Source: Candidatus Omnitrophota bacterium (GTDB lineage Bacteria; Omnitrophota; Gorgyraeia; Gygaellales; Profunditerraquicolaceae). Taken from it: a DNA stretch of 64,000 nt. The stretch covers positions 26,419 to 90,418 of the forward strand of contig JALNZI010000001.1 in the NCBI GenBank assembly GCA_023229385.1, given 5' to 3'. A program made the position numbers and the translations under genes. The notes under the pieces are model-generated. The model was not told where the DNA came from. It did no database searches and saw only the letters and a list, made by a program, of their open reading frames with translations. Below, piece after piece: positions 1 through 41,803 of the stretch; the first letter of the stretch is position 1, and each line of letters starts with the position of its first letter.

Positions 1-165
1 ATCAGATATTTAGCTCTATGTAATAATGACTATAAAAAATATATAGAGTTAAGGATCGCGTACTATAATAAAATAGTAGCTGTTAACCCTAAATTAAAAG
101 TGTTTCTAAAAGGCTGGCTTAATAGAACAACCAGCCTTTTAACGTATCTAAAATCTATTCATTAA
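1..165 (+). CDS. 3' fragment of an unidentified CDS entering from the left edge
   Basis: Frame 1 has no stop from nt 1 to TAA 163-165 (54 codons, read by hand), which is long for DNA this AT-rich. It is absent from the ORF track because no start lies in the window. Its tail overlaps the nadE 3' end by 11 nt. Confidence 0.3.
   Translation: MRYLALCNNDYKKYIELRIAYYNKIVAVNPKLKVFLKGWLNRTTSLLTYLKSIH
108..140. terminator. bidirectional intrinsic-terminator-like hairpin
   Basis: AAAGGCTGG, 13-nt loop, CCAGCCTTT. An A-run lies 5' and a T-run 3', so it reads as stem plus U-tract on both strands. It sits just beyond the nadE stop. Confidence 0.5.
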
Positions 166-1873
166 ATCCAGTATAATTATTTAAAATAGTATCTCGCATT
201 GAAAATCCAAATGATCTATTTGACAAAATCAGCACAGGTGAACCCTGTGCTCTCTTATATGCAGTTGTCTTGATTTTTTTCCAAGCCAAATATACATTCT
301 TAGTAATATCTTCCAAGGTATATCCCCATAAATCACCTGAATAATTGGATTCTGCTCGTATTGCATTAATAACTTCTTTAGGGGTCATGCCTTCTCGAAT
401 GAACAATTCACAAACTCTGCTCATAATTACATAATCAAAAGGATCTTCGTTACTATCTTCTAATTCTGCTGCTGGTTTTAATGATCCATCATACAAGCAT
501 TTTGGAATTACTTCAACCATCTCTACTTTATTAATATATTCAGCTAATTTAAAGATCTCAGTTTTACTTAGATCCCCAATTGGCTGCAAAATTCCACAAT
601 AGTTTCCAATATCGCCAAATGAATTCCACCCTAATGCATTTTCAGTATGGTTTCCACAGGATAATAAACCGCTATTATAATTATGAGTAGCAGAAATACC
701 CAAAGCCTTTCGCAAAGTGGCTTCAAACGAAGCTATTTGTCCTGGCTTGGCATCTGGGTTGTTTTTCTTGTATACATCTATATATTCAATAATAGGTTCA
801 TACTTTAATTCTACTCCTAAGTTAGTGGCTAATACTTGAGCATTATTTAAAGTAATTTTCCCATTATTTTTTGAAGGCTGAGTTATGAATATTACATGAT
901 CCTTATCCATAGCTTTAACGGCGAAATATCCAACTAAAGCTGAATCAATTCCTCCGCTAATATGAACTTGAGCATTTTCAATGTGGCATTGTTCGTATAT
1001 ATGCTTAATTGAATAAATGATTGCATTTGCAATCATACCATATTTTGATTTATTTTCTAAAATATTGCTAGTATAATCCTCACTAGTTAATTCTAAATCA
1101 GAATCATTCAAAATAACTGTAGCTAAATGCTCCTTAAATCTAGGAGCAACTTGAGTTACATAGTGTTCATTATTTTTATTGTGTGAAATTAATGATCCAC
1201 CATCATAGCACATAAAATTCTTACTAATATCACCAATTCCTACACTATTAACATATAAAATAGGAATAATATTATGAATATTATGTAAAATATTAGCTCG
1301 CTGCTGCTTCTTGTCAAAAGTAAAATAACTAAAATTTAGAGAAAAAATTACTTCAGCACCTTCTTCTGCATTTTCTCTAATTAAATCCTTAGAATAAGAA
1401 TTCCAAAGATCTTCGCAAATTAAAACTCCAAATTTAATACCATTATAGTATAATACCTTATTACTCTTTCCTGCGGTAAAGTATTTACGATCTTCATGAT
1501 GATAATCATTAGCTAATTTTTGTTTATCATAAATTCCAATAATCTTTCCATCAGCCAAAACGAATGCACTATTGTATAATTTATGATTATCGTCTAATCT
1601 AGGTGATCCAATGATTACAACAGTTTTATTATTCTCGGTTAATTTAGCAATACTATTAACCCTATCTTCACAATCATGAATGAAAGGCTTTTTTTCAAAT
1701 AAATCACCACAATTATAACCGCTTAATGTCATCTCAGGGAATACGATAAAATCATATTGTAAATTATCCTTTACAATATTGAAAGCTTTATTGTAATTGT
1801 CTTCAACGGCACCCGTTTTGATCTCAATTTGAGCCGCTAAAATCTTTTTTGCTTCAGGCATCAAATACTCCAT
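155..1873 (-). CDS. nadE: glutamine-dependent NAD+ synthetase (CN-hydrolase + NAD synthase domains)
   Basis: 572 aa. The N-terminal nitrilase-type domain shows FPEMTLSGY, KQKL and GVLICEDLW, matching the Glu/Lys/Cys triad contexts. The C-terminal domain has the PP-loop HISGGIDSAL. Confidence 0.85.
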   Translation of the reverse strand: MEYLMPEAKKILAAQIEIKTGAVEDNYNKAFNIVKDNLQYDFIVFPEMTLSGYNCGDLFEKKPFIHDCEDRVNSIAKLTENNKTVVIIGSPRLDDNHKLYNSAFVLADGKIIGIYDKQKLANDYHHEDRKYFTAGKSNKVLYYNGIKFGVLICEDLWNSYSKDLIRENAEEGAEVIFSLNFSYFTFDKKQQRANILHNIHNIIPILYVNSVGIGDISKNFMCYDGGSLISHNKNNEHYVTQVAPRFKEHLATVILNDSDLELTSEDYTSNILENKSKYGMIANAIIYSIKHIYEQCHIENAQVHISGGIDSALVGYFAVKAMDKDHVIFITQPSKNNGKITLNNAQVLATNLGVELKYEPIIEYIDVYKKNNPDAKPGQIASFEATLRKALGISATHNYNSGLLSCGNHTENALGWNSFGDIGNYCGILQPIGDLSKTEIFKLAEYINKVEMVEVIPKCLYDGSLKPAAELEDSNEDPFDYVIMSRVCELFIREGMTPKEVINAIRAESNYSGDLWGYTLEDITKNVYLAWKKIKTTAYKRAQGSPVLILSNRSFGFSMRDTILNNYTGFNE

Positions 1874-2822
1874 TCTTTTTGTATATGTTAAAAAGTGCTT
1901 TATGTTCAGGCATGAAATGATCTTCTGTTAAGTCAGATTTACTAAATAACCTCAACTCCCCACCTTTCATATCATCTAAAGGAATAAAATTTGATCCGAC
2001 TTCAGCTTCTAATACAAATAAAGCAGTTTTAATGCAATGTTTAGATTTCTTATAACGAGGATCATTGACTCTAGGTCCAAAGATGTATCGTAAGTTATCA
2101 ATAGATCCAGTATATCCCGTTTCTTCCTGAACTTCCCGCAAAGCATCTTCCTCTAAAGATTCAGAATCTGGATCAGAAAATCCCCCAATAAATCTAAATT
2201 TATCTTGATTTGGCTTTCTACCTAATAATACCCCATCCCCAACTAAAATGCAAGCATCTACAGTTTGATAAGCTGTTGGATATTGATTATTTGCCAAATA
2301 AAATGCTCCTTTAATGAACATAGGATCTGGTAAAAATACAGTAGAGCATTGCTGACGCATATTGGTTGCACTTATGCCGTCATTAAAATATTGAAATCTA
2401 ACTTTATTGTTAAATTCTCCAAAATAATGATCAATAAAAGAATCTCTTCCACCCATTAATCCAACTTCATCAGGAGTAGTATAATATTTGCAATTTTTGA
2501 TTTTCTCATCTAGCATTTTGGACCACTTAGGCACATCATGCACATCTACTAATTCAGTAAATTCAATGCGGCTAATAGTGCGAATAACGTCCCCCATCGT
2601 TGATTTTGGAGTATTGAATACATTATATAATGCTCTAATTAATAGTTCTACCCTTACTTCATAAGGAATTAAATCAATTTCTGTTTTGATACTATTTGAA
2701 CCAATTACTACTAGTACACTATTTGCACTATTTAAAGCGCTTGTGATCAATGCAATATGAGATTCAGTTGGCTCTGGTGCTTGGAATTTTCCAACAACAA
2801 CTCCTAATTTATAGTTAGACAT
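1854..2822 (-). CDS. nadM: bifunctional NMN/NaMN adenylyltransferase (NadM type) fused to a Nudix ADP-ribose pyrophosphatase domain
   Basis: 322 aa. GKFQ...TESH sits where the (H/T)xGH motif is expected, and ISATNMR matches ISxTxxR. The Nudix box is GGFSDPDSESLEEDALREVQEETG. The architecture matches KVP40 NatV and cyanobacterial NadM-Nudix. Confidence 0.8.
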   Translation of the reverse strand: MSNYKLGVVVGKFQAPEPTESHIALITSALNSANSVLVVIGSNSIKTEIDLIPYEVRVELLIRALYNVFNTPKSTMGDVIRTISRIEFTELVDVHDVPKWSKMLDEKIKNCKYYTTPDEVGLMGGRDSFIDHYFGEFNNKVRFQYFNDGISATNMRQQCSTVFLPDPMFIKGAFYLANNQYPTAYQTVDACILVGDGVLLGRKPNQDKFRFIGGFSDPDSESLEEDALREVQEETGYTGSIDNLRYIFGPRVNDPRYKKSKHCIKTALFVLEAEVGSNFIPLDDMKGGELRLFSKSDLTEDHFMPEHKALFNIYKKNGVFDA

Positions 2823-3990
2823 TTTTTACATCCTCCTCTAATGCATTCAATAAATATTCTTGATATTTTTTATTTTCGCACATACTCTTTCCAATATCAT
2901 TACTAATTTTAGAAACTGGACGACCATTAACTGAAGTGATCTTCATTACAATATTAAGTATTGTGTGATTTAATCCAACGTCATTTGTTAAATTAGTACC
3001 GACTCCAAAAGAAACATTAATTTTGTTTCCAAATTCTTCATATAGTTTAATACAATCAGGAATACTTAAACTATTACTAAAAACCATACTTTTTGTTTTA
3101 GGATCAATTCCATATTTTTTATAATGATTTAATATTTCATAACCCCATTTAATAGGATCACCACTATCATGTCTAACTCCATTATAAGTCTTAGTTAAGT
3201 ATTCATCAAAATCTTTTAAAAACTTATTGTTAGGAAAAATATCACTCAAAGCTATTAAGAAATTATTTCCCCATAATCTATTCCAATCATATAAACATTT
3301 AATTTGAGAATCAAGTGGATGATTGATTCCTTGATAAAATTGCAAAATAGAATGTCCCATTGTACCTAAAACATTAATATTAAATATTTTACCTAATTCT
3401 ACATTTGAAGTACCTAATATATTATCAGTTTCACTTATTAATCTACTTAAAACATGTAAATGCCATTCTTTACTAAATCTGCGTCTAGTTCCAAATTCCA
3501 TTAGTTTAATATTAGGATTATTGTTCAATAGCTCTATCTTGCTAGTTAATAATTCATCCCCTTTTACTTCAAAATCCTCTAATTCTTTACGCGAATATAA
3601 TTGCTCATTAAATGTCTCATTTACTATTGATAATACTGGAATATCCAATAATAATGTAGTCCAATACTCTCCTTTAACTTTAATGTTTAAATTATTATTA
3701 ATAATACTAACAATTATTCCATTTTCATCAAATGGTACATTATTATTAATATATTCATATAAGAAAGATAATTTATCATAACATATTTTATTTAAATATT
3801 TAACTTCATTGTTAGTAAATCTTAATTTAATATATTCAGATAATTGATATCTAACACTATCTGCAATATTGGATAGATTAATATCATTGCGGCACTTAAA
3901 AGAATATTCTACCCAATTTCCACTATGCTGTTTAGCTAGCGCAAGCATAGTAAACTGGTAAACATCAGTATCTAGAAAACTAGTTAACAT
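2815..3990 (-). CDS. pncB: nicotinate phosphoribosyltransferase
   Basis: 391 aa, colinear with E. coli PncB as I remember it. Shared elements: LDTDVYQFTM N-terminus, MEFGTRRRFS, GVRHDSGDP, SFGVGTNLT, NIVMKI..NGRPVSKIS. Confidence 0.8.
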   Translation of the reverse strand: MLTSFLDTDVYQFTMLALAKQHSGNWVEYSFKCRNDINLSNIADSVRYQLSEYIKLRFTNNEVKYLNKICYDKLSFLYEYINNNVPFDENGIIVSIINNNLNIKVKGEYWTTLLLDIPVLSIVNETFNEQLYSRKELEDFEVKGDELLTSKIELLNNNPNIKLMEFGTRRRFSKEWHLHVLSRLISETDNILGTSNVELGKIFNINVLGTMGHSILQFYQGINHPLDSQIKCLYDWNRLWGNNFLIALSDIFPNNKFLKDFDEYLTKTYNGVRHDSGDPIKWGYEILNHYKKYGIDPKTKSMVFSNSLSIPDCIKLYEEFGNKINVSFGVGTNLTNDVGLNHTILNIVMKITSVNGRPVSKISNDIGKSMCENKKYQEYLLNALEEDVKNV

Positions 3991-4008
3991 TTTATTTTCT
4001 CCTGTTGA

Positions 4009-4884
4009 TTAAGATTTGTTTCTAACTGCCAAAATCACACTCTTGTTTCTTTTTAATATTTTACTAATATCTTCATCTGAATAATTTAATTCAATCAAAT
4101 ATTCAATATTAACTCTATCTATTATTTCACTATTTTCGTCACAATTAATATTATTCATCTTTAATGTTTCACATACAATTGATTCACTGCACCCAACTAC
4201 TTTAGCTATTTTTGATTGGCCCACTCCATCAATATGCAAAGAAATAATTAAATCTCTATCTACTCTTTTATTATAATTATTTTTTAATGAAGCTATTTTC
4301 TTATATATTTCATCTTTATATTTTTTAAACATTTCAATGTTTGCATGTTCATCTCTATGACAATTTGAGCATAATACTTTACATTTATCTAATTCGCTAT
4401 ATATTAAATCAATGTTTTCATTTATTTTATTTTTAGTAAATACTACTAAATCACTTATTCCATATTCCTTATTAATAATATGATGGAATTCTAATGATTG
4501 TATCGTTTTATTATACCCACATTTTTCACAACTATTAATATTTTTATATTTTAGAAACAATTCTTTATTTAAAAATGTTTCATATTTACTATCATCTACA
4601 TGATGTAATTCTCTATGACAATTTCCGCACAAACATATACATTTTAAGCTTTCTTTATATAACTTCTCATAAGAAAAATCGCCTTTAGTACCAATTTCAA
4701 ATAATTTAGTATTTGGATCTAAATGATGAAATTGATATATCCAGGGTCTATCTAGATCAGATATTCCGCATTTTTGGCATCTGCCTCCGTGAGCTTGGAT
4801 TAATTTTATCTTCTTAGCCATTTTTATAATATAGCGGCTTATTTTTGTTTTATTTAAATCTCTATTTCCTTTATAATAACTCAT
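4009..4884 (-). CDS. free-standing HNH homing endonuclease with duplicated HNH/zinc modules and a C-terminal HTH
   Basis: 291 aa. Module 1: CQKCG..FHHLDP..CGNCHRELHH. Module 2: CEKCGY..FHHI..CSNCHRDEH. The tail GQSKIAKVVGCSESIV looks like an HTH. Confidence 0.7.
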   Translation of the reverse strand: MSYYKGNRDLNKTKISRYIIKMAKKIKLIQAHGGRCQKCGISDLDRPWIYQFHHLDPNTKLFEIGTKGDFSYEKLYKESLKCICLCGNCHRELHHVDDSKYETFLNKELFLKYKNINSCEKCGYNKTIQSLEFHHIINKEYGISDLVVFTKNKINENIDLIYSELDKCKVLCSNCHRDEHANIEMFKKYKDEIYKKIASLKNNYNKRVDRDLIISLHIDGVGQSKIAKVVGCSESIVCETLKMNNINCDENSEIIDRVNIEYLIELNYSDEDISKILKRNKSVILAVRNKS

Positions 4885-4903
4885 ATTTCATGTGCCTCAC
4901 TAT

Positions 4904-4910
4904 TATTTAG
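4904..4910 (-). promoter_or_regulatory. late-type box CTAAATA
   Basis: Lies 19 nt upstream of ATG 4884. The spacer contains a GAGG Shine-Dalgarno. Confidence 0.35.
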
Positions 4911-4951
4911 CAAATGCACATGAAGTATTTTATTTTATAAATTAATATAAC

Positions 4952-4987
4952 AAAAAATGGGCCAGCTTTAAATATAAAACCGGCCCA
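4952..4987 (-). terminator. intrinsic terminator after thyX
   Basis: On the minus strand: TGGGCCGG, loop, CTGGCCCA, followed by TTTTTT. Confidence 0.55.
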
Positions 4988-5009
4988 ACACCTAAATAAC
5001 TAATATTTT

Positions 5010-6578
5010 TTAATTATTACTATTAGCTTCAATTTTGCTTTGAATAACTTCTTCTTGTTTTCTTCTATCAGAATATTCATTAAGATTTACTCTAATGTGC
5101 TTTGATAAAGATTTAAAATTATTGTCAAATAATTTATACATAGCCTGAGCTAATCTTCTGTATGAGTAATGTCCAGCTTCACCACTTCTTAATTCAATTA
5201 TATAGGCTAATTCTTTAAAATTACATTCTAATATAAATCTAACATTATGGCCTAATAATAATGCATATTCTGAATTATTATTTTTATCTTTTATTAATTT
5301 AGAATTTAATTTTGAATACTCTTCAAATAAGCTTATATATTTTTCTTTAATATCTAATAATTTATAATCATTTAAAGATTCTGGAATAGAATATCCTCTT
5401 AATGAACTCCATTTTTCAACAATTTGAGTGCAATTACGATGTCTTTGCAAATCTCTAAATGCTCCAATATCACAAATTACTTCAAATTGAATCATTCCAA
5501 CTGCACATTCATCTGGAAAATCATCATGAATGCCTCTTTCTTCAAATGCTAAATTAAATACCTCATCCAATCCTAATGAAGTATCTACTAATACATTACT
5601 ATCAAATAATCCAGTTGCATTTATTAAAGAATATGCTACTTCAAGCTCAATATTGCTAGCTGAATTTAAGTACACTCCAGGTTTTGATTCATTTAGGGGT
5701 AATTCTTTTATTTCAGTTGAACATATTTTCTTAGCTAAAGCGCCTAATCTTCTATTTAAAAATGTATTTTTTTCAACATGATTAATTAAAGCAGCGGTAA
5801 TTTTGCCACATTCTATTTTTAATTTTTCTCCAATTTCTACCACTTCTGGAAACTCAGACGTTAATAATTTAGATATCCATCGTTCTGTTTCTCTAGTGCT
5901 CATAGTTGCACCTAAAGATGTTTTAATTGTGGTTGGAAGTAAATATCTAGCATCATCAAAAGCTTTAGCCGAACAAGTTCTAATCCAAGCATTTTGATTC
6001 TTAAAATCACTTTCAGGAATTATTTCCTTATAATACTCAATTAATCTAGATTTAGCTTCTGAATATACTTGCATTGCTTTTGCAGATAATTCATCTATAG
6101 CTTTATCAATTAAAATATAAGAATCTCCAGAAAAATCCATATATCTAGTTGATTTTTCTTGAAAAGCGGCTAATTTAGATTCTTCTATAAACTTAGAAGC
6201 TCTAATACTAACACCTTCAATAGCCATCATATTAAATGCACTATCTTTTAAGCTATTATGCCCATATTCAATAGACCACTTAGCCATAAATTTATTAGCT
6301 TTTTCCATTATTTTTGCTATATAATTATTAGTAGCTGGTAAATCATTAGTAAAAGATGATAATAATTGATAATATTCAATTGATTCTTCTTTAGCTAAAT
6401 CCTTTAATACCTTTAAAAATCTATCTCTTAAAGATAATCCTGATCTAGAATAGCCTCCTAATAATAATCCCCAAATTGATATTGGCATATTATCAGTTGC
6501 ACAATAAACATTTGAATCATTGTTGGTAAAATAATAAGACAATATAGCCGTTTCAAGCTCTTCAATTGTATTTGGCAT
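5010..6578 (-). CDS. thyX: flavin-dependent thymidylate synthase, long (about 520 aa) two-lobed form
   Basis: The C-terminal lobe carries DLQRHRNCTQ..SSLRGY and ELRSGEAGHYSYRRLAQAM (ThyX RHR and C-terminal Arg motifs). The N-terminal lobe carries AAFQEKSTRY, which is SxRY-like but has no RHR. Confidence 0.6.
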   Translation of the reverse strand: MPNTIEELETAILSYYFTNNDSNVYCATDNMPISIWGLLLGGYSRSGLSLRDRFLKVLKDLAKEESIEYYQLLSSFTNDLPATNNYIAKIMEKANKFMAKWSIEYGHNSLKDSAFNMMAIEGVSIRASKFIEESKLAAFQEKSTRYMDFSGDSYILIDKAIDELSAKAMQVYSEAKSRLIEYYKEIIPESDFKNQNAWIRTCSAKAFDDARYLLPTTIKTSLGATMSTRETERWISKLLTSEFPEVVEIGEKLKIECGKITAALINHVEKNTFLNRRLGALAKKICSTEIKELPLNESKPGVYLNSASNIELEVAYSLINATGLFDSNVLVDTSLGLDEVFNLAFEERGIHDDFPDECAVGMIQFEVICDIGAFRDLQRHRNCTQIVEKWSSLRGYSIPESLNDYKLLDIKEKYISLFEEYSKLNSKLIKDKNNNSEYALLLGHNVRFILECNFKELAYIIELRSGEAGHYSYRRLAQAMYKLFDNNFKSLSKHIRVNLNEYSDRRKQEEVIQSKIEANSNN

Positions 6579-6868
6579 TACTTGCCCACCTTGGGTAAAG
6601 AATCGCCGGTAGCTCGTCTATGTGCCCGAATAAGCACTCTTGAGTCAATTGGATCAGTCTGAATATTATTAGATATTGATAATACTAGCCATTCAATCCA
6701 AATTCCTTCATCATTTTTTATTTCTAAAATTTTTCCTATTTTAGCTAATTTTAATGGGATTAATACTACTGTTTGAACCACTTCATAATTAATTTTACGA
6801 ACTAATGTGCATTGCTTAAAATCACCTTTAACTACTCCACTATCATTTTGAGAAGTATTTACATTCAT
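6578..6868 (-). CDS. hypothetical protein
   Basis: 96-aa ORF. Its stop abuts the thyX start (shared nt 6578). No motif recognised. Confidence 0.5.
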   Translation of the reverse strand: MNVNTSQNDSGVVKGDFKQCTLVRKINYEVVQTVVLIPLKLAKIGKILEIKNDEGIWIEWLVLSISNNIQTDPIDSRVLIRAHRRATGDSLPKVGK

Positions 6869-7326
6869 TTCTTTTTTCCTTTTTTACTATCTATTGCTTC
6901 AAATTCCTTAGAATTTCCATACCAATTTATTAAATTAACATTATCATCACAGGTAGTTTTAACTAATATAAATGGATCATACCCATATATATCACCCATA
7001 ACTAAAAATTCTTCACTTTCAGAAACTGATGATAATTTACTATCATCTTTTAACATTAATCCGCCTTCAATAGCTTTATATATATTCGCAACTGAAGTTA
7101 ATTCATTAGAAAATCCTAATAAAATTCTACCTTCTTCATCAAATTCTTTTAATATAATATCTCTAGGATTCTTAGTACTTACATAAACTCCAGATGGTAT
7201 ATCTGGATTTATACTAATTTCATGCAAATCAGTTAAAGTGTCAAATGTATAATAATCATCAAATTCATATAGATTTAGATTATTATGTTCATTTATCATA
7301 TCTTTAATGAAATTACTTAGCGACAT
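6865..7326 (-). CDS. hypothetical protein (weak SUKH/SMI1-KNR4-like C-terminal pattern)
   Basis: 153-aa ORF with 4-nt overlap coupling to its neighbour. EFLVMGDIYGYDPFILV is only loosely SUKH-like. Confidence 0.5.
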   Translation of the reverse strand: MSLSNFIKDMINEHNNLNLYEFDDYYTFDTLTDLHEISINPDIPSGVYVSTKNPRDIILKEFDEEGRILLGFSNELTSVANIYKAIEGGLMLKDDSKLSSVSESEEFLVMGDIYGYDPFILVKTTCDDNVNLINWYGNSKEFEAIDSKKGKKK

Positions 7327-7588
7327 ATTGCTGTAAACTTTCTACTTCATTTATTAATTCAGGATCAATATCTATTTCTAGCAATTTTGCAAAATCCACA
7401 TTATATGTGAATTTTTTTTCTTTAACATTGTATTGTAATTTTAAATTAGGATCGCTTGCTTCGCTTTTACTCAAAGATAATGCATTCAATAAATCATTAA
7501 ATTTAGGCAAAGTTTCTTTTCTCGAATAAAGCTCACCTATTTCATCAATCGCTTGCAATCTCTGATTCAATGTCAGGCTTAGTTTCAT
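7313..7588 (-). CDS. hypothetical protein (start set at internal ATG 7588; the track ORF extends to 7657)
   Basis: The frame is open from 7657, but the upstream 69 nt overlap the preceding ORF. The first plausible start is MKLSLTLNQ. Confidence 0.45.
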   Translation of the reverse strand: MKLSLTLNQRLQAIDEIGELYSRKETLPKFNDLLNALSLSKSEASDPNLKLQYNVKEKKFTYNVDFAKLLEIDIDPELINEVESLQQYVAK

Positions 7589-7892
7589 TGCGTTTCTTTC
7601 TAGTTTTTTTAGGAGGTAATGGTAATAATTCATTATTATCTTCAATAATTTTATCAATTTTAATAGTAATCATTTTATCAAATTTAAATATACTAGCTTC
7701 TACGTCTTTTAATTTCCAATTATTAACATAGCTATTGTATACATCTTTGACTATTTTTTTGTCTTCGGGAGTATGATATTGAAATAAACCTGGGCAGTCA
7801 TCAGAATATAGCCACCCACCATCTATCCAATATCTATATTTATCTGTAACATGACTGAAAGCAATAAATTCCTTACATTTAGTATAATCCAT
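7545..7892 (-). CDS. hypothetical protein
   Basis: 115-aa ORF with a basic PPKKTRKKR tail. It is preceded by a TGATATAAT box. Confidence 0.55.
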   Translation of the reverse strand: MDYTKCKEFIAFSHVTDKYRYWIDGGWLYSDDCPGLFQYHTPEDKKIVKDVYNSYVNNWKLKDVEASIFKFDKMITIKIDKIIEDNNELLPLPPKKTRKKRNETKPDIESEIASD

Positions 7893-7898
7893 ACATTA

Positions 7899-7907
7899 AT
7901 TATATCA
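7899..7907 (-). promoter_or_regulatory. extended -10 promoter TGATATAAT (TGATATAATTA family)
   Basis: Lies 6 nt upstream of ATG 7892. Its TGA is the stop codon of the 7905-8171 gene. Confidence 0.45.
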
Positions 7908-8171
7908 TTTATTTGAAACAGCTACTTCAACATAGTCTCCTGAATTTCCTAATAAAATAGTCGAGCCATTTTTGTTTAATAAACGTGTCCTATCTATCGT
8001 ATATTCCCCAATTCTAAATAATATTTCAGGATTAGTTCCTGGAACTTTTTCATTTATTATGCTATCTATTACTGCAATTGATATTGTAGGAGTACTCGTT
8101 CCACTATAATCTCTAAAAATCACAGCATCCCCTTTAGCTACGTTACACATTTCTTTAATTTCAATTATCAT
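7905..8171 (-). CDS. hypothetical protein
   Basis: 88-aa ORF. ATGA start/stop overlap with the macro-domain gene. Confidence 0.5.
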   Translation of the reverse strand: MIIEIKEMCNVAKGDAVIFRDYSGTSTPTISIAVIDSIINEKVPGTNPEILFRIGEYTIDRTRLLNKNGSTILLGNSGDYVEVAVSNK

Positions 8172-8635
8172 TACTTATCTCCACTTCTTCTGCATACGAT
8201 TACTTCAGGATATACTGAGAATATGATTGATTCTACTGTTTTCCAATCACCTCCGCCTAATCCACATCCAATCTTAAATGGAATGTAAACTGGTTTATGT
8301 TTAATATTCACTAATTTGAGAAAAGTGAAGCATGATTTAATGGCTTCGTAGCTAGTATATAATTTTCCATCATAACCATAATCATATTGCATGAATGCAT
8401 TAACTATTTTTAAGTTATCATTGATGGTTACAATATTGTTTGTTCCTAATATTGCATCTGCTTCTCCATTATTATAATAATCTTTTATTACTTTTGAATA
8501 GCCATTAAAAATTATTGGGTATTTTTTTCTAAGTTGACCCGCAACTCCACTACCCATTCTACCCCTGCAATTAACTTGATGAACAATAAATCCCTCATCA
8601 ATTAATGTAATATCTTTTTCAATCTCTTCTAGCAT
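8171..8635 (-). CDS. macro-domain protein (ADP-ribose binding/hydrolase family)
   Basis: 154 aa. FIVHQVNCRGRMGSGVAGQLRKKYP and CGLGGGDW are typical stand-alone macrodomain signatures. AAGAGGA Shine-Dalgarno upstream. Confidence 0.7.
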   Translation of the reverse strand: MLEEIEKDITLIDEGFIVHQVNCRGRMGSGVAGQLRKKYPIIFNGYSKVIKDYYNNGEADAILGTNNIVTINDNLKIVNAFMQYDYGYDGKLYTSYEAIKSCFTFLKLVNIKHKPVYIPFKIGCGLGGGDWKTVESIIFSVYPEVIVCRRSGDK

Positions 8636-8647
8636 TAATTATTCCTC

Positions 8648-9100
8648 TTAATTACAATGCATTTGAATGTCGTCTTCAGTAAATACATAAAACAACATTC
8701 CATTTGCAGTAGCATATGCGTTAGCTGCTTTAAATTTAGCATTATTCACTACATATTGCTTAGTTTCAGTCATTACAGTTTTTTTAGATCTATGCTCAGT
8801 TTTAGGCGGATTTAATTGCTTTTTTGGTTTAACTTCAATTAATATACGTTTACGTTCACCATTTTGTCCAGCTATCTCAACATAAAAGTCTACAAAATAT
8901 CTATGGATTTTCCCATCTAATGGAGACATATAGGGCACTGTAACTAATTCACTACCCCATTTAACGATATTATCATTATTATCTAAAAACCACATCACTC
9001 TACGCTCCCAAGATGATCTAAAATTAGGAGTATGATCTCCTAAATATTTTTCTTTATTTATTGGGTGATATAATCCAATTGGTGGTAACTTAGAATTCAC
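8648..9100 (-). CDS. T4 gp4-like head completion nuclease (PD-(D/E)xK fold)
   Basis: 150 aa with a GTG start. RSSWERRVMWFLDNN, IHRYFVDFYV and ILIEVKPKKQ fit D...ExK. Size and motifs fit my recollection of the gp4 family. A late box lies 6 nt upstream. Confidence 0.5.
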   Translation of the reverse strand: MNSKLPPIGLYHPINKEKYLGDHTPNFRSSWERRVMWFLDNNDNIVKWGSELVTVPYMSPLDGKIHRYFVDFYVEIAGQNGERKRILIEVKPKKQLNPPKTEHRSKKTVMTETKQYVVNNAKFKAANAYATANGMLFYVFTEDDIQMHCN

Positions 9101-9105
9101 ATATA

Positions 9106-9246
9106 TTATTTAGAATATAATTTTTTTAAATATTCTCTCATCTTAATATAATCCAATTCAGCTTTCTTAGCTCTAATTTTAGTATCTTCTGATATTTCAT
9201 CAATACTCTTCTCTGATTGAGAAGATTTTGACTTCTTTGTTTCCAT
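9106..9246 (-). CDS. small hypothetical protein (46 aa), below the ORF-track cutoff
   Basis: Hand-translated as METKKSKSSQSEKSIDEISEDTKIRAKKAELDYIKMREYLKKLYSK*. It fills an otherwise empty 147-nt gap on the coding strand. Confidence 0.35.
   Translation of the reverse strand: METKKSKSSQSEKSIDEISEDTKIRAKKAELDYIKMREYLKKLYSK
9107..9113 (-). promoter_or_regulatory. late-type box CTAAATA
   Basis: 6 nt upstream of GTG 9100. Confidence 0.5.
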
Positions 9247-9247
9247 T

Positions 9248-9559
9248 TTAAATTCGATTTAAATTAGAATTAATATCTTTAACAATATCTAAAATAACAT
9301 TTAAACTTTTATTACTTAATTTTTCTTTATTTTTAGTAGTATATTTATCAATATTAAAAATCGTATACTTAACTGAACTAGTATATCCTAATAAAAATTG
9401 TTTTAATAATGCAACTCTAGTATATTCAACAAATTCTTCATCATCTTGTTTATTAGCAAATTGGCATAATGCTTTAAGAGAGCTTTCAAATTCATCGTAA
9501 ATACCTAATTCTATTAATAAAGAATCTGTATTGTTTACTATTTCAGCTTCGTCGTTCAT
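9248..9559 (-). CDS. hypothetical protein
   Basis: 103-aa ORF with a 4-nt overlap with the upstream gene. Confidence 0.5.
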   Translation of the reverse strand: MNDEAEIVNNTDSLLIELGIYDEFESSLKALCQFANKQDDEEFVEYTRVALLKQFLLGYTSSVKYTIFNIDKYTTKNKEKLSNKSLNVILDIVKDINSNLNRI

Positions 9560-9975
9560 CTTGCTAAGATTATCCCAGATGGAGTGGTTGGATTACTAAG
9601 TAAATATTTTTTCTCTAATTCATCATATTCTTTTGATAATTTACCATATTCATTTATTAACCCAGATATTGTAACATTTTGGCTCTGAATTAATGATAAT
9701 AAATTTTCAGTAGTAGTTGCATCAAAAACTTCAACATATAATGTAGCAGTTTTTTGATAATACTTTCTAAAATACATTATATCTTCTTCATCATCAACAT
9801 TAATAGTTGGAGTCCATAGTAAATAATATTTGCTTCCTTTTGCTGTAGTAGACGATTCAATTGATTCAACAAATCTATGTTCAACTGAACTACTGCAAAC
9901 ATAAGCCTTTTTCTTACTTCCCTCAACGAGTTCTAACTTACTACCACAAAATGGGCAAATGTAATTCTTAGTCAT
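9556..9975 (-). CDS. hypothetical zinc-ribbon protein
   Basis: 139 aa with an N-terminal CPFCGS...CSSSVEH. AAAGGA Shine-Dalgarno and a TGTTATAAT box lie upstream. Confidence 0.55.
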   Translation of the reverse strand: MTKNYICPFCGSKLELVEGSKKKAYVCSSSVEHRFVESIESSTTAKGSKYYLLWTPTINVDDEEDIMYFRKYYQKTATLYVEVFDATTTENLLSLIQSQNVTISGLINEYGKLSKEYDELEKKYLLSNPTTPSGIILAR

Positions 9976-9991
9976 ATCAATCCTTTAATTA

Positions 9992-10000
9992 ATTATAACA
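9992..10000 (-). promoter_or_regulatory. extended -10 promoter TGTTATAAT
   Basis: 16 nt upstream of ATG 9975, immediately after the nrdJ terminator. Confidence 0.45.
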
Positions 10001-10026
10001 AAAAGACCTCAATCGAGGTCTTTTTT
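10001..10026. terminator. bidirectional intrinsic terminator
   Basis: AAAAGACCTC-AATC-GAGGTCTTTTTT. Stem 10005-10010 pairs with 10015-10020, with A/T runs on both sides. It lies 4 nt beyond the nrdJ stop. Confidence 0.65.
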
Positions 10027-10029
10027 GAA

Positions 10030-12504
10030 TTATCCACATTTAGCATAGCCGCAATGAGTACACATTAAACAGCCTTCAATATATGAAATATCTCCTCCGC
10101 AATTTGGGCATTTTTGCTTAGATGAAGTGCCATCTTTAATATATTTCTTCAAAACTCTAGCAATTATCCTAGAAAATGAATACATATCAGATGCTTTATC
10201 CTTTTGAATTTGCTCAACTATAATATGAATCGGTGTCCCTATTCTCAATAATAAAGAAATCATTCTGGTAAATGCACCCTGAGTAGGATTCTCAAACATA
10301 TTAACTACATCTTTTATTTTCCCAGTTTCATCTCCATCTGAATATACTAATTCATATATAGATAATCCATCATCATTTTTACCGCATCTATCTAAGAAAC
10401 CATGCTTAATTTTTTTAGGTAATTCAACTTTAGAAGATAGCCCTCCAAATAATTCATAAGGCTTTCCATCTAATTTACCAATAAAAATTGTCCATGCTTG
10501 CGAATTTATTATAGCTTGATGAATATCACACTCTAATCTCTTAGGTCTAGTTATTGAATGAACTTCTCCGCATGTGCATTCTTCATTTTTAGTTTCTTTT
10601 TTAGTAATTAATACTCCATCTCGACATCCATCTCTATATACAGTGAATCCTTTGCATCCAGATTCCCAAGCTTTCATATAAATATCTGCAACTAATTCTT
10701 TAGTTGCAGAATTAGGAAGATTACATGTTTTAGAAATACTATGACATATCCATTTCTGAGCCACAGCTTGTATTTTTACTGAAGCTAACCAATCTACATC
10801 ATTGGCAGTAGCTTTATAATACGGAGATTTATCAAAATCTTCATAAGTATATCCAGTTACATCCATCCATTGCTTAAATCCTTCATGATATACTTCAAAT
10901 ACTTGCCATTTATCCCCCAATGAATCAATGTAATCAACTTTTTCATTTGAATTACTTAAATTTATTTTTTTACGTCTTGAATATTTTATTGCAAATACTG
11001 GCTCAATACCTGATGTAGTTTGAGTCATCATTGAAACTGATCCAGTTGGAGCAGTGGTAGTTAATGCAATATTTCTTCTACCAAATTTTTTATATTTTTC
11101 TTGAACTTCAATTGGTAAATTACTAATTACTCTAGATACAAACACATGGTCTTTTTCTAATTCATAATTAAATATTGGAAATGAACCACGTTCTTCGGCT
11201 AATTCAATAGAAGATTCATATGCACTGACTTCTAAAGTCTTGTATATTTTTTCAGTCACTTCTATTGATTCATCAGAACCGTATCTAATATTTAATGCAG
11301 CTAATGCATCACCTAAAGCAGTTATACCTAGTCCAGTTCTTCTACCTTTTAAGCAAGTTTCTTTAATTTTATTCCATAATTCTAATTCAACTCTTTTTAT
11401 TTCATAAGGCTCTGGATCTGATTCAACTTTGGCTAATATTTTATCAATCTGTTCAAGCTCAATATCAATCATATCATCCATTAATCTTTGAGCAATCTTA
11501 GTTATCTTAATAAAATTCACATAATCAAAATATGCCTTTTTTGTAAATGGATTTATTACAAAAGATTTTAAGTTTTCACAAATTAATCTGCAAGAATCAT
11601 AAGCAGGTAATACAATTTCTCCACAAGGATTTGTTGCAATACTTCTGAATCCAAAATCTCCATATATATCACTTGGCGTATATTTTAATGCGTTATCCCA
11701 AAATAATAATCCAGGTTCAGCCGATTCCCAAGCTGCAAAAATTATTTGATTCCATATTGATCTAGCGTCAACCATCTTACTTATTGATGGATTATCAGAA
11801 TCAACCGGCCATCTTTGCTCATAATCGGTGCCATTTTTTACAGCATTCATGAATTCATCAGTTAATTTGACTGATATATTAGCACCTGTAATTCTAGTCT
11901 TATCTCTTTTTATGTTAATGAATGTTTCTATTTCAGGATGATGCACCGAACATGCTTCTAATAAAGCACCTCTTCGGCCAGATTGTGCAACTTCTCTAGT
12001 AGTATTGGAAAATCTATCCATATAGACGCCAATTCCATCAGTGGTTTTAGCAGCATTTGCTACTGGAAGACCAGATGGACGAATATTTGAAATATCATGT
12101 CCAACTCCACCTCTTCTTTTCATTAATTGAGCTTGCTCTTCGTCTGTTCTATGTATTCCACCCATAGAATCATAAGCTGAATCAATAACAAAGCAATTAC
12201 TAGCAGACTGAGTATTATAAGGATTTCCAATTGCGCTCATTGGAGAACCCTGGGGAATTATATATCTAAAATTTTCAAATAATCCATATATAGTATCTTT
12301 ATCTAAAGAATTTGGATACTTTTTTTCAATCCTTGCAAATTCTCCAGCTAATCTTTTATGCATTTCATTAGGAGTTAATTCATAATAAATATCACCATCT
12401 TTCAACGCATATTTGTCTGCAAAAACTTTTGCAGCCATTTCATCACCATTAAAATATTTAATAGATTCTTTAATTACTTCTTTGTAAGTAGCCATGATTT
12501 CCAT
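10030..12504 (-). CDS. nrdJ: class II (adenosylcobalamin-dependent) ribonucleotide reductase
   Basis: 824 aa. Shows NPCGEI active-site context, SNCFV, the TTAPTGS region and a C-terminal CPNCGG..CTHCG zinc ribbon. An alternative start is ATG 12495. Confidence 0.85.
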   Translation of the reverse strand: MEIMATYKEVIKESIKYFNGDEMAAKVFADKYALKDGDIYYELTPNEMHKRLAGEFARIEKKYPNSLDKDTIYGLFENFRYIIPQGSPMSAIGNPYNTQSASNCFVIDSAYDSMGGIHRTDEEQAQLMKRRGGVGHDISNIRPSGLPVANAAKTTDGIGVYMDRFSNTTREVAQSGRRGALLEACSVHHPEIETFINIKRDKTRITGANISVKLTDEFMNAVKNGTDYEQRWPVDSDNPSISKMVDARSIWNQIIFAAWESAEPGLLFWDNALKYTPSDIYGDFGFRSIATNPCGEIVLPAYDSCRLICENLKSFVINPFTKKAYFDYVNFIKITKIAQRLMDDMIDIELEQIDKILAKVESDPEPYEIKRVELELWNKIKETCLKGRRTGLGITALGDALAALNIRYGSDESIEVTEKIYKTLEVSAYESSIELAEERGSFPIFNYELEKDHVFVSRVISNLPIEVQEKYKKFGRRNIALTTTAPTGSVSMMTQTTSGIEPVFAIKYSRRKKINLSNSNEKVDYIDSLGDKWQVFEVYHEGFKQWMDVTGYTYEDFDKSPYYKATANDVDWLASVKIQAVAQKWICHSISKTCNLPNSATKELVADIYMKAWESGCKGFTVYRDGCRDGVLITKKETKNEECTCGEVHSITRPKRLECDIHQAIINSQAWTIFIGKLDGKPYELFGGLSSKVELPKKIKHGFLDRCGKNDDGLSIYELVYSDGDETGKIKDVVNMFENPTQGAFTRMISLLLRIGTPIHIIVEQIQKDKASDMYSFSRIIARVLKKYIKDGTSSKQKCPNCGGDISYIEGCLMCTHCGYAKCG

Positions 12505-22030: not shown

Positions 22031-22948
22031 TTGCGAAATGCTGAAGAAATAATCAAGGATTTAGGCGAACTCTCTCCGATTGAATGGAATTCGGCTTTAG
22101 CTAAAGAATATGATTTAAGTGAAGAAGAATTTATAAAAATAGTATCTGCATATAATTATACAGTATTGTCTGAGGATAATATTCATCATAAAATGAAACC
22201 TGTCTATGCTATTATTTCTGAAAAATTAACAAATAAACCTATTGAAGATAATAAATCAATTAAAGATATTATTAAAATTTCATTTGTAGTTAGAGATATT
22301 GGCGGTATTTTATTTGAATTAGGGGATGTATTAGATCAAATGATTTTCTGCGGATTTGTTATGCGTGAAAGTCAAATGAGTGCATTAATTATTAAAAATT
22401 GTATTTTCAATAATTGCACAATGGTTGGTACTAATTTTCAATCAACTAGATTCATTCAATGTAAATTTATTGATTGTGATTTTTCTGGAGCCGATTTTAG
22501 CTCAAGTTTATTTATAAAATGCCAATTTTTTGAAAATAATTTTAGAAACGCCACCTGCAATGATTTGAAAATATACGATGGTGCATTTTATAATTGTGAA
22601 TTATTTGAGAGTGATTTTGATGGCTCGTCTGTTGTTAATACCTTAATACATGGCACTAGTTTTGTCAATGGATCATTTAAAAATATTGATTTTTTGAGTA
22701 CTGTTATTACTTATTGCGATTTTAAAAATTCATCATTAAAAAATTCATCATTTCTAGATTGTAATTTAATTTCAATTGATTTACGTGATTCTACTTTGAA
22801 TGGATTAGCATTAGTTGGAACATATAAAAGTGCATTATTAGTAGATGCAATGTATTCTGATTTATTTGAGGGATCTAGTGATGATTCTGAAAACTCGGAT
22901 AGTTCATTTGATGATGGAGATGAGGATAGTAGTTATGCAGATGATTGA
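22031..22948 (+). CDS. pentapeptide-repeat protein with an acidic Ser/Asp tail
   Basis: 305 aa with a TTG start behind GAGGTG. About 150 aa of uninterrupted A(D/N)LxX-type repeats, for example CDFSGADFSSSLFIKCQFFENNFRNATCNDLKIYDGAFYNCELFESDFDGSS. The tail is SSDDSENSDSSFDDGDEDSSYADD. Confidence 0.8.
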   Translation: MRNAEEIIKDLGELSPIEWNSALAKEYDLSEEEFIKIVSAYNYTVLSEDNIHHKMKPVYAIISEKLTNKPIEDNKSIKDIIKISFVVRDIGGILFELGDVLDQMIFCGFVMRESQMSALIIKNCIFNNCTMVGTNFQSTRFIQCKFIDCDFSGADFSSSLFIKCQFFENNFRNATCNDLKIYDGAFYNCELFESDFDGSSVVNTLIHGTSFVNGSFKNIDFLSTVITYCDFKNSSLKNSSFLDCNLISIDLRDSTLNGLALVGTYKSALLVDAMYSDLFEGSSDDSENSDSSFDDGDEDSSYADD

Positions 22949-39155: not shown

Positions 39156-40334
39156 TTGAGAGCTACAAATTCTACTTTACTTAAAACTTCTAGCATTAGA
39201 TACTATGATAAAAAAATAAAGCAATGCTCTTTATTTACTAAAGAAGAAGAAATAAGTATTTTTACGTTAATGTTTAATATTAAAAAAAACATATGCAATA
39301 TACTATTAAATGATATTAATATATTCAATAAATTTAAAAAAATAGCTAGCGAATATTTAGATAATGACAATTTAATGGATTTTATTTTATTTGATACTGA
39401 TTTTTGTAAAACTTCAGATTTAGAGGAAATTGTTGATTTTTACGAAACAGCAACTAACTCAATTATATTATTAGAAAAATACGAAGATACAAAAGATTAT
39501 ACTAATTTGATTTATTTTAGTAATGAAGCTTTTAATAGTTTAATTTGCTTATTATCAAATGAAGAAAGAGAAAAATATAACATAGATAGCTTATTAAAAA
39601 TAATTGATTCAATTAGGGATAGAATAATTGAACATAATTTAGCAATGGCAGTTGAACTAGCATTAAAATATAAAAACACTATACAAATCTCATTAGATGA
39701 TGCAATACAGGGCGCAATGATTGGATTATCTATTGCTGTTGATAAGTTCAACCCTTTTATAAAAACTAAATTGTCAACCTCGGCTTATTCTTGGATATTC
39801 CAAGGTATTCAAAGACTAAATGATAATACTTGTGAATTAATACAAACTCCATGTAATATCATTGAACAAAGTAAGAAAAATAATAAAATAATAAATGACT
39901 TATTAAAAAGCAAAGGATCGTTTCCTAGCGCAGATGAAATATGCGAAGCTGCCGGAAATGATTCATATCTAGTATCTATTAAAAGATATGATTCATTTGA
40001 TTCAGTGGATGCAAATAATATTCAGTTATGCGATAAGATAAAAGATCCAAATATTGCAGATAATACTACTATTTTAGAATATAATAAACTTAAAAATAAA
40101 ATGAAAGATATTATTAATTCTTTGGATGATAAAGAAAAAGAAATAATTGAATTAATGTTTGGTTATAATAATAAAGAACCGTTAAGCAATAAAGCAATAA
40201 TGGATAAATTAAGCATAGATAATTATTCTTTTAACAAATTAAGAACCATTGCTTTAAATAAAGTTAAAGATTTAGTTGAAGAAGAATTTGAATTCGACAA
40301 TTGGAGAGAAATTTTTGAAAGCGAGGAGTTATAA
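39156..40334 (+). CDS. sigma-70-family RNA polymerase sigma factor
   Basis: 392 aa with a TTG start 6 nt after GAGGTG. Region 2 is IIEHNLAMAVELALKY..LDDAIQGAMIGLSIAVDKFNP..STSAYSWIFQGIQR. Region 4 is LDDKEKEIIELMFG...NKLRTIALNKVK. Confidence 0.75.
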   Translation: MRATNSTLLKTSSIRYYDKKIKQCSLFTKEEEISIFTLMFNIKKNICNILLNDINIFNKFKKIASEYLDNDNLMDFILFDTDFCKTSDLEEIVDFYETATNSIILLEKYEDTKDYTNLIYFSNEAFNSLICLLSNEEREKYNIDSLLKIIDSIRDRIIEHNLAMAVELALKYKNTIQISLDDAIQGAMIGLSIAVDKFNPFIKTKLSTSAYSWIFQGIQRLNDNTCELIQTPCNIIEQSKKNNKIINDLLKSKGSFPSADEICEAAGNDSYLVSIKRYDSFDSVDANNIQLCDKIKDPNIADNTTILEYNKLKNKMKDIINSLDDKEKEIIELMFGYNNKEPLSNKAIMDKLSIDNYSFNKLRTIALNKVKDLVEEEFEFDNWREIFESEEL

Positions 40335-40675: not shown

Positions 40676-40676
40676 T

Positions 40677-41755: not shown

Positions 41756-41773
41756 TTAGTACCTTCTACCTAT

Positions 41774-41785
41774 TATTTATAAATA
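41774..41785. promoter_or_regulatory. palindromic bidirectional late promoter TATTTATAAATA
   Basis: A perfect 12-nt palindrome gives TATAAATA on both strands. Each box is exactly 18 nt from its ATG (41755 and 41804), and each spacer holds a Shine-Dalgarno (GAAGG or AAGGA). Confidence 0.5.
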
Positions 41786-41803
41786 AATACTAAGGACTAT
41801 AAA

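Follow-up and report, generated by a model that had tools for sequence, protein, structure and literature searches.

Introduction

Can a phage make nicotinamide adenine dinucleotide (NAD+) from nicotinate with enzymes of its own? The question was raised by a stretch of 64,000 nucleotides from a Candidatus Omnitrophota assembly (GCA_023229385.1, contig JALNZI010000001.1, positions 26,419 to 90,418), which is called the window here and which represents 64 kb of a phage genome of at least 268 kb. At its beginning the window was found to contain three consecutive genes, encoding a nicotinate phosphoribosyltransferase (PncB), a NadM-type adenylyltransferase fused to a Nudix domain (the middle protein) and a glutamine-dependent NAD+ synthetase (NadE). 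An earlier reading of the letters without database searches (the sequence-only reading) had described them as a complete Preiss-Handler operon of a lytic phage and as a third route of phage NAD+ reconstitution. The pathways by which phages rebuild NAD+ (NARP1, NARP2 and NARP3) are a current focus of phage-defence research, and the phage NAD+ routes shown experimentally to date all use, to our knowledge, amidated precursors.

We consider it probable that the translationally coupled operon is a Preiss-Handler route of the phage's own that leads from nicotinate to NAD+, in which NadM stands in for NadD and the nicotinamide phosphoribosyltransferase (Nampt) partner has been swapped. In this route PncB would turn nicotinate and phosphoribosyl pyrophosphate (PRPP) into nicotinate mononucleotide (NaMN), the NadM domain would adenylylate NaMN to nicotinate adenine dinucleotide (NaAD), and NadE, a fused glutaminase and synthetase, would amidate NaAD to NAD+ with glutamine as the donor. 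The Nudix half would hydrolyse ADP-ribose (ADPR), as the cellular NadM-Nudix enzymes do. Such a module would have arisen from a NARP2-related one, PncB and NadE taking the place of Nampt and the adenylyltransferase being retuned to NaMN, and the operon would be an ancestral, vertically inherited part of a large T4-like phage lineage. It would keep NAD+ high in the infected cell, to the benefit of the neighbouring ribonucleotide reductase (RNR) and ThyX, whose nucleotide synthesis depends on NAD(P)H. Given nicotinate, either from the medium or made by host PncA from released nicotinamide, it would also cushion the cell against defences that deplete NAD+.

Identity of the three enzymes

Three consecutive open reading frames (ORFs) on the minus strand were present in the ORF listing at the coordinates that had been claimed for them (Table 1), and the motifs quoted with that claim, namely MEFGTRRRFS, GVRHDSGDP, ISATNMR, GGFSDPDSESLEEDALREVQEETG and SGGIDS, were all found in the translations. 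Profiles, alignments and fold were found to agree on the gene identities and on the pathway logic, and key motifs were found in all three proteins on alignment, in NadM-Nudix with a variant form of HxGH.

The protein of 391 residues had been called PncB-like, and its identity as PncB rather than Nampt was borne out by the curated models, in which it scored 319.5 bits against the TIGR01514 equivalog (cutoff 269.55) and 379 bits against NF003704 (cutoff 379). It was found to contain the Pfam domains NAPRTase_N (PF17767) and NAPRTase (PF04095) and to have no NAMPT_N domain, and its match to the Nampt PHROG scored just 8e-12. Over its whole length the protein was aligned with the PncB structures 1YIR (E 2.4e-65) and 3OS4, and all of its sequence matches in the PDB were NAPRTases. 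The motifs FGTRRRFS, RHDSGDP and SFGVGT were kept, as was GTMGH, which was aligned to GTMAHEW of 1YIR and 3OS4; the histidine of the latter is presumably the autophosphorylated position known from Salmonella PncB.

NadE was found to contain the Pfam domains CN_hydrolase (PF00795, 66.5 bits) and NAD_synthase (PF02540, 91.3 bits), and it passed the TIGR00552 domain model (71 bits against 63.65). The closest solved enzymes were the glutamine-dependent NadEs of Acinetobacter baumannii (5KHA, E 3.7e-43) and Burkholderia (4F4H), with which it was aligned and in which FPEM, DKQKLAN, LICEDLW and SGGIDSAL were found to match. The first three of these motifs we take to be the contexts of the Glu, Lys and Cys triad and the fourth to be the PP-loop.

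In the middle protein the Pfam domain NUDIX was found with 36.8 bits (cutoff 21.1), the N-terminal nucleotidyltransferase scored weakly, and no match to the Pfam domain CTP_transf_like was present. A total of 240 homologues of the protein were gathered and 30 of them were aligned, and the profile built from this alignment matched both domains of the NadM-Nudix structures of Francisella (2QJT, E 6.5e-27) and Synechocystis (2QJO, E 3.2e-23), together with archaeal nicotinamide mononucleotide (NMN) adenylyltransferases (NMNATs) across the N-terminal domain. An AlphaFold model with a mean predicted local distance difference test score (pLDDT) of 93.3 was matched by Foldseek over its full length to 2QJT, 2R5W and 2QJO as the top structures (E 1e-16 to 1e-18), and the identity to 2QJO and 2QJT in structural alignment was about 16-19%. 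By profile and by model, the middle protein is identified as a two-domain NadM-Nudix protein.

The adenylyltransferase motif of the middle protein (GKFQAPEPTESH) was found to be a TxxH variant of HxGH, with T19-E-S-H22 following an insertion of two residues relative to GRFQPFHxGH, and the broader family was found to contain L-H-E-(G/A)-H. It was followed by the presence of ISATNMR (ISxTxxR), in which Arg156 was invariant. Across the clade of PncB-linked relatives described below, the conserved N-terminal residues were G11, F13, Q14, T19, W100-S101, D105, G124-R126-D127-S128-F129 and R156. The Nudix core was found to be R229-E230-V-Q-E233-E234-T-G-Y, with E230, E233 and E234 invariant in the alignment of homologues; the Nudix box GX5EX7REUXEEXGU was recognised, its spacing from G to E being one residue longer, likewise in the family consensus. 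For the Nudix half, which is homologous to the ADP-ribose pyrophosphatase domain of the NadM-Nudix enzymes, this activity is the probable one.

Organisation of the operon

At the junction of pncB and nadM an overlap of 8 nt (ATGTCTAA) was found, with the Shine-Dalgarno sequence GAGGAGGA upstream. This overlap had been claimed together with one of 20 nt between nadM and nadE, of which the latter holds only with the first ATG of nadE; with the ATG at 1861 this junction also has an overlap of 8 nt (ATGCCTGA), and GGAG precedes the ATG. The ATG at 1861 was the NadE start chosen by the gene callers on identical contigs, and it is likely the true start. Both junctions were found to be ATGNNTRA overlaps of 8 nt with an internal Shine-Dalgarno sequence, a pattern by which pncB, nadM and nadE are read as translationally coupled.

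Genomic partners and clade-specific residues

Proteins closest to the middle protein (38-50% identity) were encoded on contigs that all contained ThyX, PncB, NadM/Nudix, NadE and dUTPase in this order, followed further on by the clamp loader. More members of the cassette with the same synteny were found through PncB homologues (L118, on a 170-kb contig, and L119) and in JGI data (L094). The PncB-linked clade comprised about 10 diverged lineages (L001-L007, L094, L118 and L119), and the survey of co-occurrence that the sequence-only reading had called for yielded the three genes as a joint cassette of fixed synteny in these lineages. Every member was found to contain PncB and NadE, and no Nampt was found within the cassette loci with Nampt queries.

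A different partner was found outside this clade. For the partner count, the best 80 of 249 IMG/VR viral contigs encoding relatives of the adenylyltransferase were taken with a neighbourhood of 5 kb; Nampt was present in 74 of these 80 loci and PncB or NadE in none. Among more distant relatives, Nampt directly followed the adenylyltransferase on three of three long metagenomic contigs and in Tunturiibacter phage Tunturi_5. The PncB-linked adenylyltransferases formed one clade in a neighbour-joining tree that was midpoint-rooted and carried no support values.

The two groups were also found to differ in residue states that were conserved in 88-99% of the Nampt-linked sequences and were different in 10 of 10 PncB-linked ones. 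In the numbering of the window protein, His at position 33 of the Nampt-linked sequences was replaced by A/G/C/Y in the PncB-linked ones, P-L-D at positions 51-53 of the NPLDF motif by (L/I)-(I/V/L/Y)-(P/S/K), Asp at position 97 by V/K/I/P and Tyr at position 123 by an aliphatic residue or Cys, followed in the Nudix half by the replacement of Trp at position 255 by P/A/V and of Glu at position 260 by S/T/G. Position 97 lies three residues before the invariant Trp100, and Asp97/Trp100 were aligned with Asn78/Trp81 of the Methanocaldococcus jannaschii NMNAT (1F9A), which are Asn84/Trp87 in the M. thermautotrophicus enzyme; NPLDF was found to correspond to the archaeal NPF(T/S) motif. The putative pyridine pocket was placed by alignment to 1F9A and 1EJ2 and from the known archaeal NMNAT structures. 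Judged from the aligned sequences, the changes can be taken to reflect a change of substrate from NMN to NaMN, the loss of an acidic residue beside the stacking Trp being as expected if the nicotinate carboxylate had to fit.

Identity to the window across the lineage was 43-51% for PncB, 35-45% for NadM and 52-55% for NadE, comparable to that of the flanking genes ThyX (54-61%) and clamp loader Gp44 (55-63%). As the cassette resembles the flanking core genes in identity, the comparison indicates a long vertical co-inheritance under purifying selection.

The huge phage LR756500.1 (L092, 462 kb) was considered as a second example of the cassette and rejected, as its NadM-Nudix was found to contain the Nampt-type residues and no NadE was found nearby; it represents a different arrangement. 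In its region 40000..53000, PncB was found four genes from the NMN-type NadM-Nudix, and PncB, a nucleoside 2-deoxyribosyltransferase-like protein, a metallophosphoesterase, NadM-Nudix, ClpP and an ADP-ribosylglycohydrolase were present within 6 kb. Another locus (L008, 6001..12427 of the 177-kb contig_39 of ENA ERZ25067888) was found to contain a NARP2-type pair of Nmnat-Nudix and Nampt, followed directly by a run of ADP-ribose-processing genes, namely KptA/Tpt1-like (PTS_2-RNA), PARG-like, two NADAR, DUF6939, Macro and ADP-ribosylglycohydrolase, which together form a dense NAD/ADPR 'island'.

Order of the steps and alternative explanations

Several points weigh against the route as proposed. 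The enzyme set of the sequence-only reading stood, and the sequence of the steps was found not to be self-evident, since enzymes of the NadM family characteristically use NMN. TESH is present in the middle protein instead of HxGH. The best score of this protein against the NCBIfam equivalogs of bifunctional NadM (PRK05379 models) was 35.6 bits, far below the cutoff of 397, and its sequence places it in a divergent viral subfamily rather than among equivalogs of the cellular enzymes; likewise NadE scored 285.8 bits against the full-length equivalog NF010588 (cutoff 479) and appears by sequence to be a divergent member of its family. The tree is weak and supports the PncB-linked enzymes as related to, rather than as derived from, the NARP2-type partners, and the positions aligned with Asp97, Trp100 and NPLDF are only presumed, from archaeal NMNAT structures, to line the nicotinamide pocket. 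Two orders of the steps are known from cellular networks (PMC3376133): the Acinetobacter type, in which a NadM that can be bifunctional for NMN and NaMN pairs with a conventional fused NadE, and the Francisella type, in which NadE serves as NMN synthetase ahead of NadM. If the second order applied here, PncB would make NaMN, NadE would convert NaMN to NMN and NadM would convert NMN to NAD+, and NaAD would not occur. This is suggested by the efficiency of NadM with NMN, by the coincidence in Francisella of the replacement of NadD by NadM with the adaptation of NadE to an NMN synthetase (same source), and by the closest relatives of the adenylyltransferase, which partner Nampt and hence are NMN users. 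The window NadE, however, is of the fused glutamine-dependent type near 5KHA and 4F4H, which in Acinetobacter is a conventional NAD synthetase, and an enzyme that still used NMN would have no need of the remodelling around the pocket in the PncB-linked clade. In Francisella, the NMN synthetase is a single-domain, ammonia-dependent NadE. Because the type of NadE differs and the adenylyltransferase is remodelled, we regard the Francisella order as improbable and retain adenylylation before amidation as the predicted order, and the flux through it in vivo is likewise a prediction. It is more doubtful still that the adenylyltransferase half is dead or repurposed, with only the Nudix domain active and host NadD performing the middle step. 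TESH in place of HxGH, the lack of a CTP_transf_like match and scores of about 35 bits against the NadM models would fit such a loss, and so would L118 (7137..8057), which was found to contain T-V-A-Q, with Q at position 22, while T19/H22 were kept across the rest of the PncB-linked clade; either the second His of (H/T)xxH is dispensable in the viral family, or the Q-bearing copies are inactive. Against it stand the N-terminal residues conserved across the clade, including R156 of ISxTxxR, the high-confidence Rossmann-like fold matching NadM and the presence of TxxH in the Nampt-linked L014, L028, L031 and L035, in which the domain is the pair's only adenylyltransferase. Variants with T and variants with Q (LHAEQ, LHEGQ) were both found in Nampt-linked members, and TxxH was rejected as a hallmark of the PncB-linked clade; in view of the Nampt-linked members that share it, TxxH probably does not inactivate the enzyme and was rejected as an inactivating change. 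PPAT-type enzymes of the superfamily usually have TxxH. That the cassette came from a cell, as a host fragment or through mis-assembly, and is not phage-encoded can for practical purposes be set aside. PncB and NadE are typical bacterial genes, and several GenBank 'phage' matches, such as 'Acinetobacter phage MD-2021a', look bacterial or prophage-adjacent; yet the same gene order was found amid phage genes of replication and nucleotide metabolism, both on separate contigs of many samples and in lineages that are no more than 43-55% identical, the cassette fits the neighbouring phage DNA in guanine-cytosine (GC) content, and the nearest cellular PncB is about 42% identical and lies in an ordinary bacterial context.

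What the NAD+ would be made for is a separate matter, on which further points weigh against a counter-defence function of the Preiss-Handler route. NADases release nicotinamide and not nicotinate, so the cassette route needs host PncA or external nicotinate, and neither the window ORFs scanned (part of the window ORFs) nor the genes called in the flank of about 10 kb on sister contigs included a PncA, Prs or niacin transporter. In the same subset of ORFs no ADP-ribosyltransferase, NAD-dependent ligase, PnuC or NiaP was found, a Macro domain being the only hit. The route costs three ATP-dependent steps together with PRPP and glutamine, and the cassette lies inside a nucleotide-metabolism block (RNR and ThyX, with dUTPase in the relatives), not beside recognised anti-defence genes, a setting that fits equally well the 'metabolic boost' which the sequence-only reading had offered as its alternative. 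The same enzymology may serve a purely metabolic function, in which environmental or host nicotinate would raise the amount of NAD(P) at hand while the phage makes DNA, with no meaningful role against NADases; we hold this to be possible, at somewhat less than an even chance. ThyX and ribonucleotide reduction depend on NADPH, and the block of RNR, ThyX, (dUTPase) and clamp loader surrounds the cassette in every lineage. The start from nicotinate rather than from the NADase product, with no phage PncA among the genes scanned, points the same way, as do the rise of NAD+ caused by NARP2 even without a defence system (bioRxiv 2024.02.11.579819) and a jumbo-phage study, which casts such clusters as complementing host NAD synthesis (PMC11662467). 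On the other side, any fast enough regeneration of NAD+ should blunt depletion, as NARP2 (Nampt with Nmnat) does in raising NAD+ and abolishing Thoeris and DSR2 defence (bioRxiv 2024.02.11.579819). The relatives of the adenylyltransferase are NARP2-type partners, the fused Nudix domain suggests, as does the Macro domain conserved nearby, that ADP-ribose is handled, and host PncA would turn the released nicotinamide into nicotinate. PncA is common in bacteria. By analogy, a counter-defence role is plausible, because the cassette is built around a relative of the NARP2 adenylyltransferase. We put forward only tentatively the fuller proposal that the cassette is a fourth, deamidated type of NAD+ reconstitution, derived from a NARP2-like module with a retuned pocket, which with host PncA and the Nudix and Macro domains would rebuild NAD+ after depletion by Sir2 or TIR enzymes. 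Hosts that quickly deamidate nicotinamide or NMN (PncA, PncC), or in which the amidated route is closed, might favour such a deamidated one.

Relation to known pathways

The label of a third route did not hold, NARP3 being already in use for PnuC with NadR (PMC13464706, Sci Adv 2026). A clustered pncB-nadD-nadE Preiss-Handler set was described in silico in the jumbo phage Kuafu_71 and a role in counter-defence or propagation was suggested (PMC11662467, Microbiome 2024), and that study describes 174 'NAD-jumbo phages', including Kuafu_71 and Kuafu_19. The window cassette resembles the Kuafu cluster as a clustered set predicted to lead from nicotinate through NaMN and NaAD to NAD+ in large phages, with both known from sequence and proposed to boost NAD+, and the window PncB occurs on a 268-kb contig, the jumbo class being defined by a genome of more than 200 kb. 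With respect to an enzyme for each step, which defines the NAD-jumbo phages, PncB and NadE were present and the middle step is covered only if NadM accepts NaMN. In contrast to the NadD of the Kuafu cluster, the window has a NadM-type enzyme fused to Nudix, translational coupling and a fixed synteny in a T4-like lineage. The Preiss-Handler pathway type in phages is thus already known from sequence; the NadM-Nudix version, its NARP2-type kinship and the residue changes correlated with them seem not to have been described, as far as the Kuafu study without its supplementary gene tables allows the comparison.

NARP2 of KVP40 (Osterman et al. 2024) is like the window cassette in that a phosphoribosyltransferase and then an adenylyltransferase rebuild NAD+, and the window adenylyltransferase-Nudix belongs to the viral family that neighbours Nampt in most of the loci counted. 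The cassette loci examined differ from it in the absence of Nampt, with PncB present instead and NadE needed as a third enzyme; the precursor would be nicotinate and not the NADase product nicotinamide, and the pocket residues of the adenylyltransferase differ. No tblastn match at 1e-5 was found between the middle protein and the KVP40-type Nmnat, and the link is transitive through the Nampt-linked relatives. NARP1 (Adps with Namat) and NARP3 (PnuC with NadR) also restore NAD+ in phages, but with other enzymes and precursors, namely ADPR and nicotinamide in NARP1 and imported nicotinamide riboside in NARP3. In profile scans of the scanned ORFs and the flank genes, no Prs-like protein, Namat, PnuC or NadR was seen in or adjoining the cassette.

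Among cellular networks, that of Acinetobacter (Sorci et al. 2010, via PMC3376133) shares with the window a bifunctional NMN/NaMN NadM and a fused NadE without NadD, and the window NadE is closest to 5KHA; the Acinetobacter genes are cellular and dispersed rather than a phage operon, and the window NadM-Nudix is distant from cellular NadM, as the low identity to 2QJO and 2QJT indicates. The Francisella route (Sorci et al. 2009) shares PncB-derived NaMN, a NadE homologue and NadM-Nudix, with 2QJT being the best structural match, and differs in that amidation precedes adenylylation there while the window NadE is fused and glutamine-dependent. Surveys by the Aravind laboratory recorded in phages only NadV with NadM or NadR, PncB and NadE are unmentioned in both the NARP paper and the NARP3 paper (PMC13464706), and a literature search for a deamidated phage NAD+ route with pncB or NAD+ synthetase returned nothing relevant.

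Phage context and neighbouring genes

The window was found to contain a gp23-type major head protein, portal, DNA polymerase, UvsX, DnaB-like helicase, primase and gp32, together with SbcCD, RNR, ThyX, dNMP kinase and a sigma factor. The capsid protein was about 30% identical to its T4-like counterparts, and the exact PncB sequence of the window was present on 14 contigs from several samples, the longest of 268,450 nt. From that contig and the T4-like capsid it follows that the source is a large, distant T4-like phage, and probably a jumbo phage. Of the description as a lytic phage, the phage part stood on the structural and replication genes and the lytic part is only plausible for a T4-like phage; no integrase was found among the window ORFs scanned, the window being 64 kb of a genome of at least 268 kb.

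Genes of the cassette type were found to be rare in deposited phages, with 13 records for PncB, 5 for the NadM-Nudix type and 16 for NadE in protein searches. No nucleotide-level match was found by megablast of the first 8 kb of the window against GenBank phages, and none in an IMG/VR scan with the PncB protein alone; the PncB-linked clade was absent from IMG/VR and represented in JGI metagenomes by a single member (L094). The GC content was about 27-28%, the cassette being like the surrounding phage DNA. The nearest cellular PncBs were gammaproteobacterial, which is not decisive for the host, and no tRNAs were found in the window, so that no hint of the host was obtained from tRNAs.

Table 1. 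Coordinates of the cassette genes and of the neighbouring features in the window
Feature	Coordinates	Strand	Description
nadE, glutamine-dependent two-domain	155..1873	-	572 aa from first ATG, 568 aa from likely start 1861; predicted step 3, NaAD + Gln + ATP -> NAD+
NadM-type adenylyltransferase-Nudix	1854..2822	-	322 aa; predicted step 2, NaMN + ATP -> NaAD
pncB	2815..3990	-	391 aa; predicted step 1, nicotinate + PRPP (+ATP) -> NaMN
Shine-Dalgarno AGGAG	3999..4003	-	8 nt upstream of PncB ATG; read from sequence
14-bp hairpin	105..142	-	13 nt downstream of NadE stop; -19.4 kcal/mol, z = -4.1, 0/200 shuffles as stable
HNH homing-endonuclease-like gene	4009..4884	-	PHROG HNH endonuclease families, E 6e-36; between ThyX and PncB; within same transcription unit, outside pathway
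Terminator-like hairpin	4958..4987	-	after ThyX; 13 pairs, then TTTTTTG; strongest site of terminator scan
Macro-domain protein	8171..8635	-	154 aa, 4 kb upstream of cassette; Pfam Macro 29.8 bits (cutoff 22)

The hairpin after ThyX is likely the 5′ boundary of the unit of HNH, PncB, NadM and NadE, and the hairpin downstream of NadE is a candidate for the operon 3′ end; the latter is contained in the 3′ end of a GH108-like gene that converges on nadE. Positions 1 to 165 form an open frame on the plus strand, and a GH108-like gene was called at the equivalent site on identical contigs. Terminator-like hairpins were found to be enriched in positions 1..10100 of the window (13 against 2.6 +/- 1.6 expected in shuffles), including one at 10000..10025 after RNR. 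The promoter scan was uninformative, with 73 sites against 74 expected.

In the HNH gene a duplicated HNH region was found, followed by C-terminal helix-turn-helix motifs. An HNH gene was present between ThyX and PncB also in L119 (5036..5914, 45% identity) and not at that site in L001, L007 and L118, and it resembles a homing endonuclease that inserts repeatedly at one site. ThyX (5010..6578, minus strand) was unusually long, with 522 residues and two stretches matching Thy1 (519-541 residues in the relatives), and it looks like a duplicated or fused form. Three contigs identical to the window across the cassette (L114, L115 and L116) were found to differ in ribonucleotide reductase: L114 (1496..3961), as the window, contained a class I/II-type large subunit (Ribonuc_red_lgC, 821 aa), and L115 (441..4002) and L116 (1..3557) contained instead an anaerobic NrdD-type gene, an ORF of 151 aa and a LAGLIDADG endonuclease, which is a module swap between near-identical phages. 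Downstream of NadE, dUTPase was present in L115 and L117 and other ORFs in L114 and L116.

The Macro protein was found to be like 2FG1 (BT1257) and 2AFC (E about 5e-10), and with 58-69% identity across the lineage it was conserved above the cassette's own level. It may process ADP-ribose and is possibly an ADP-ribose-linked accessory of the cassette. It adjoins a TnsA-like endonuclease-N protein (8648..9100, minus strand, 150 aa), and this pair was found to be 58-71% identical across the lineage, above the NAD cassette or ThyX. Elsewhere in the window, the DNA polymerase ORF (27568..31611, plus strand, 1347 aa) was found to match the PHROG polymerase from about residue 640, the roughly 640 N-terminal residues being without annotation, and a pentapeptide-repeat protein (22031..22948, plus strand, 305 aa) was present between the SbcC-like and SbcD-like genes and may be a DNA mimic or a protein of the topoisomerase-protection type.

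Significance

If the cassette is a booster only, it would be one more auxiliary metabolic module of a large phage and of modest interest. If the Preiss-Handler reading is true, the deamidated branch would also be exploited by phages, with an adenylyltransferase recruited from the NARP2 family, and any counter-defence by the cassette would be expected to require either host PncA or nicotinate from outside. A natural sequence pair for working out how NadM-type enzymes distinguish NMN from NaMN would then be at hand in the PncB-linked and Nampt-linked clades, which differ at positions 33, 51-53, 97 and 123. Although unsurprising in kind, the cassette is a clean, testable example of a phage NAD+ module in which partners were swapped and specificity was probably switched.

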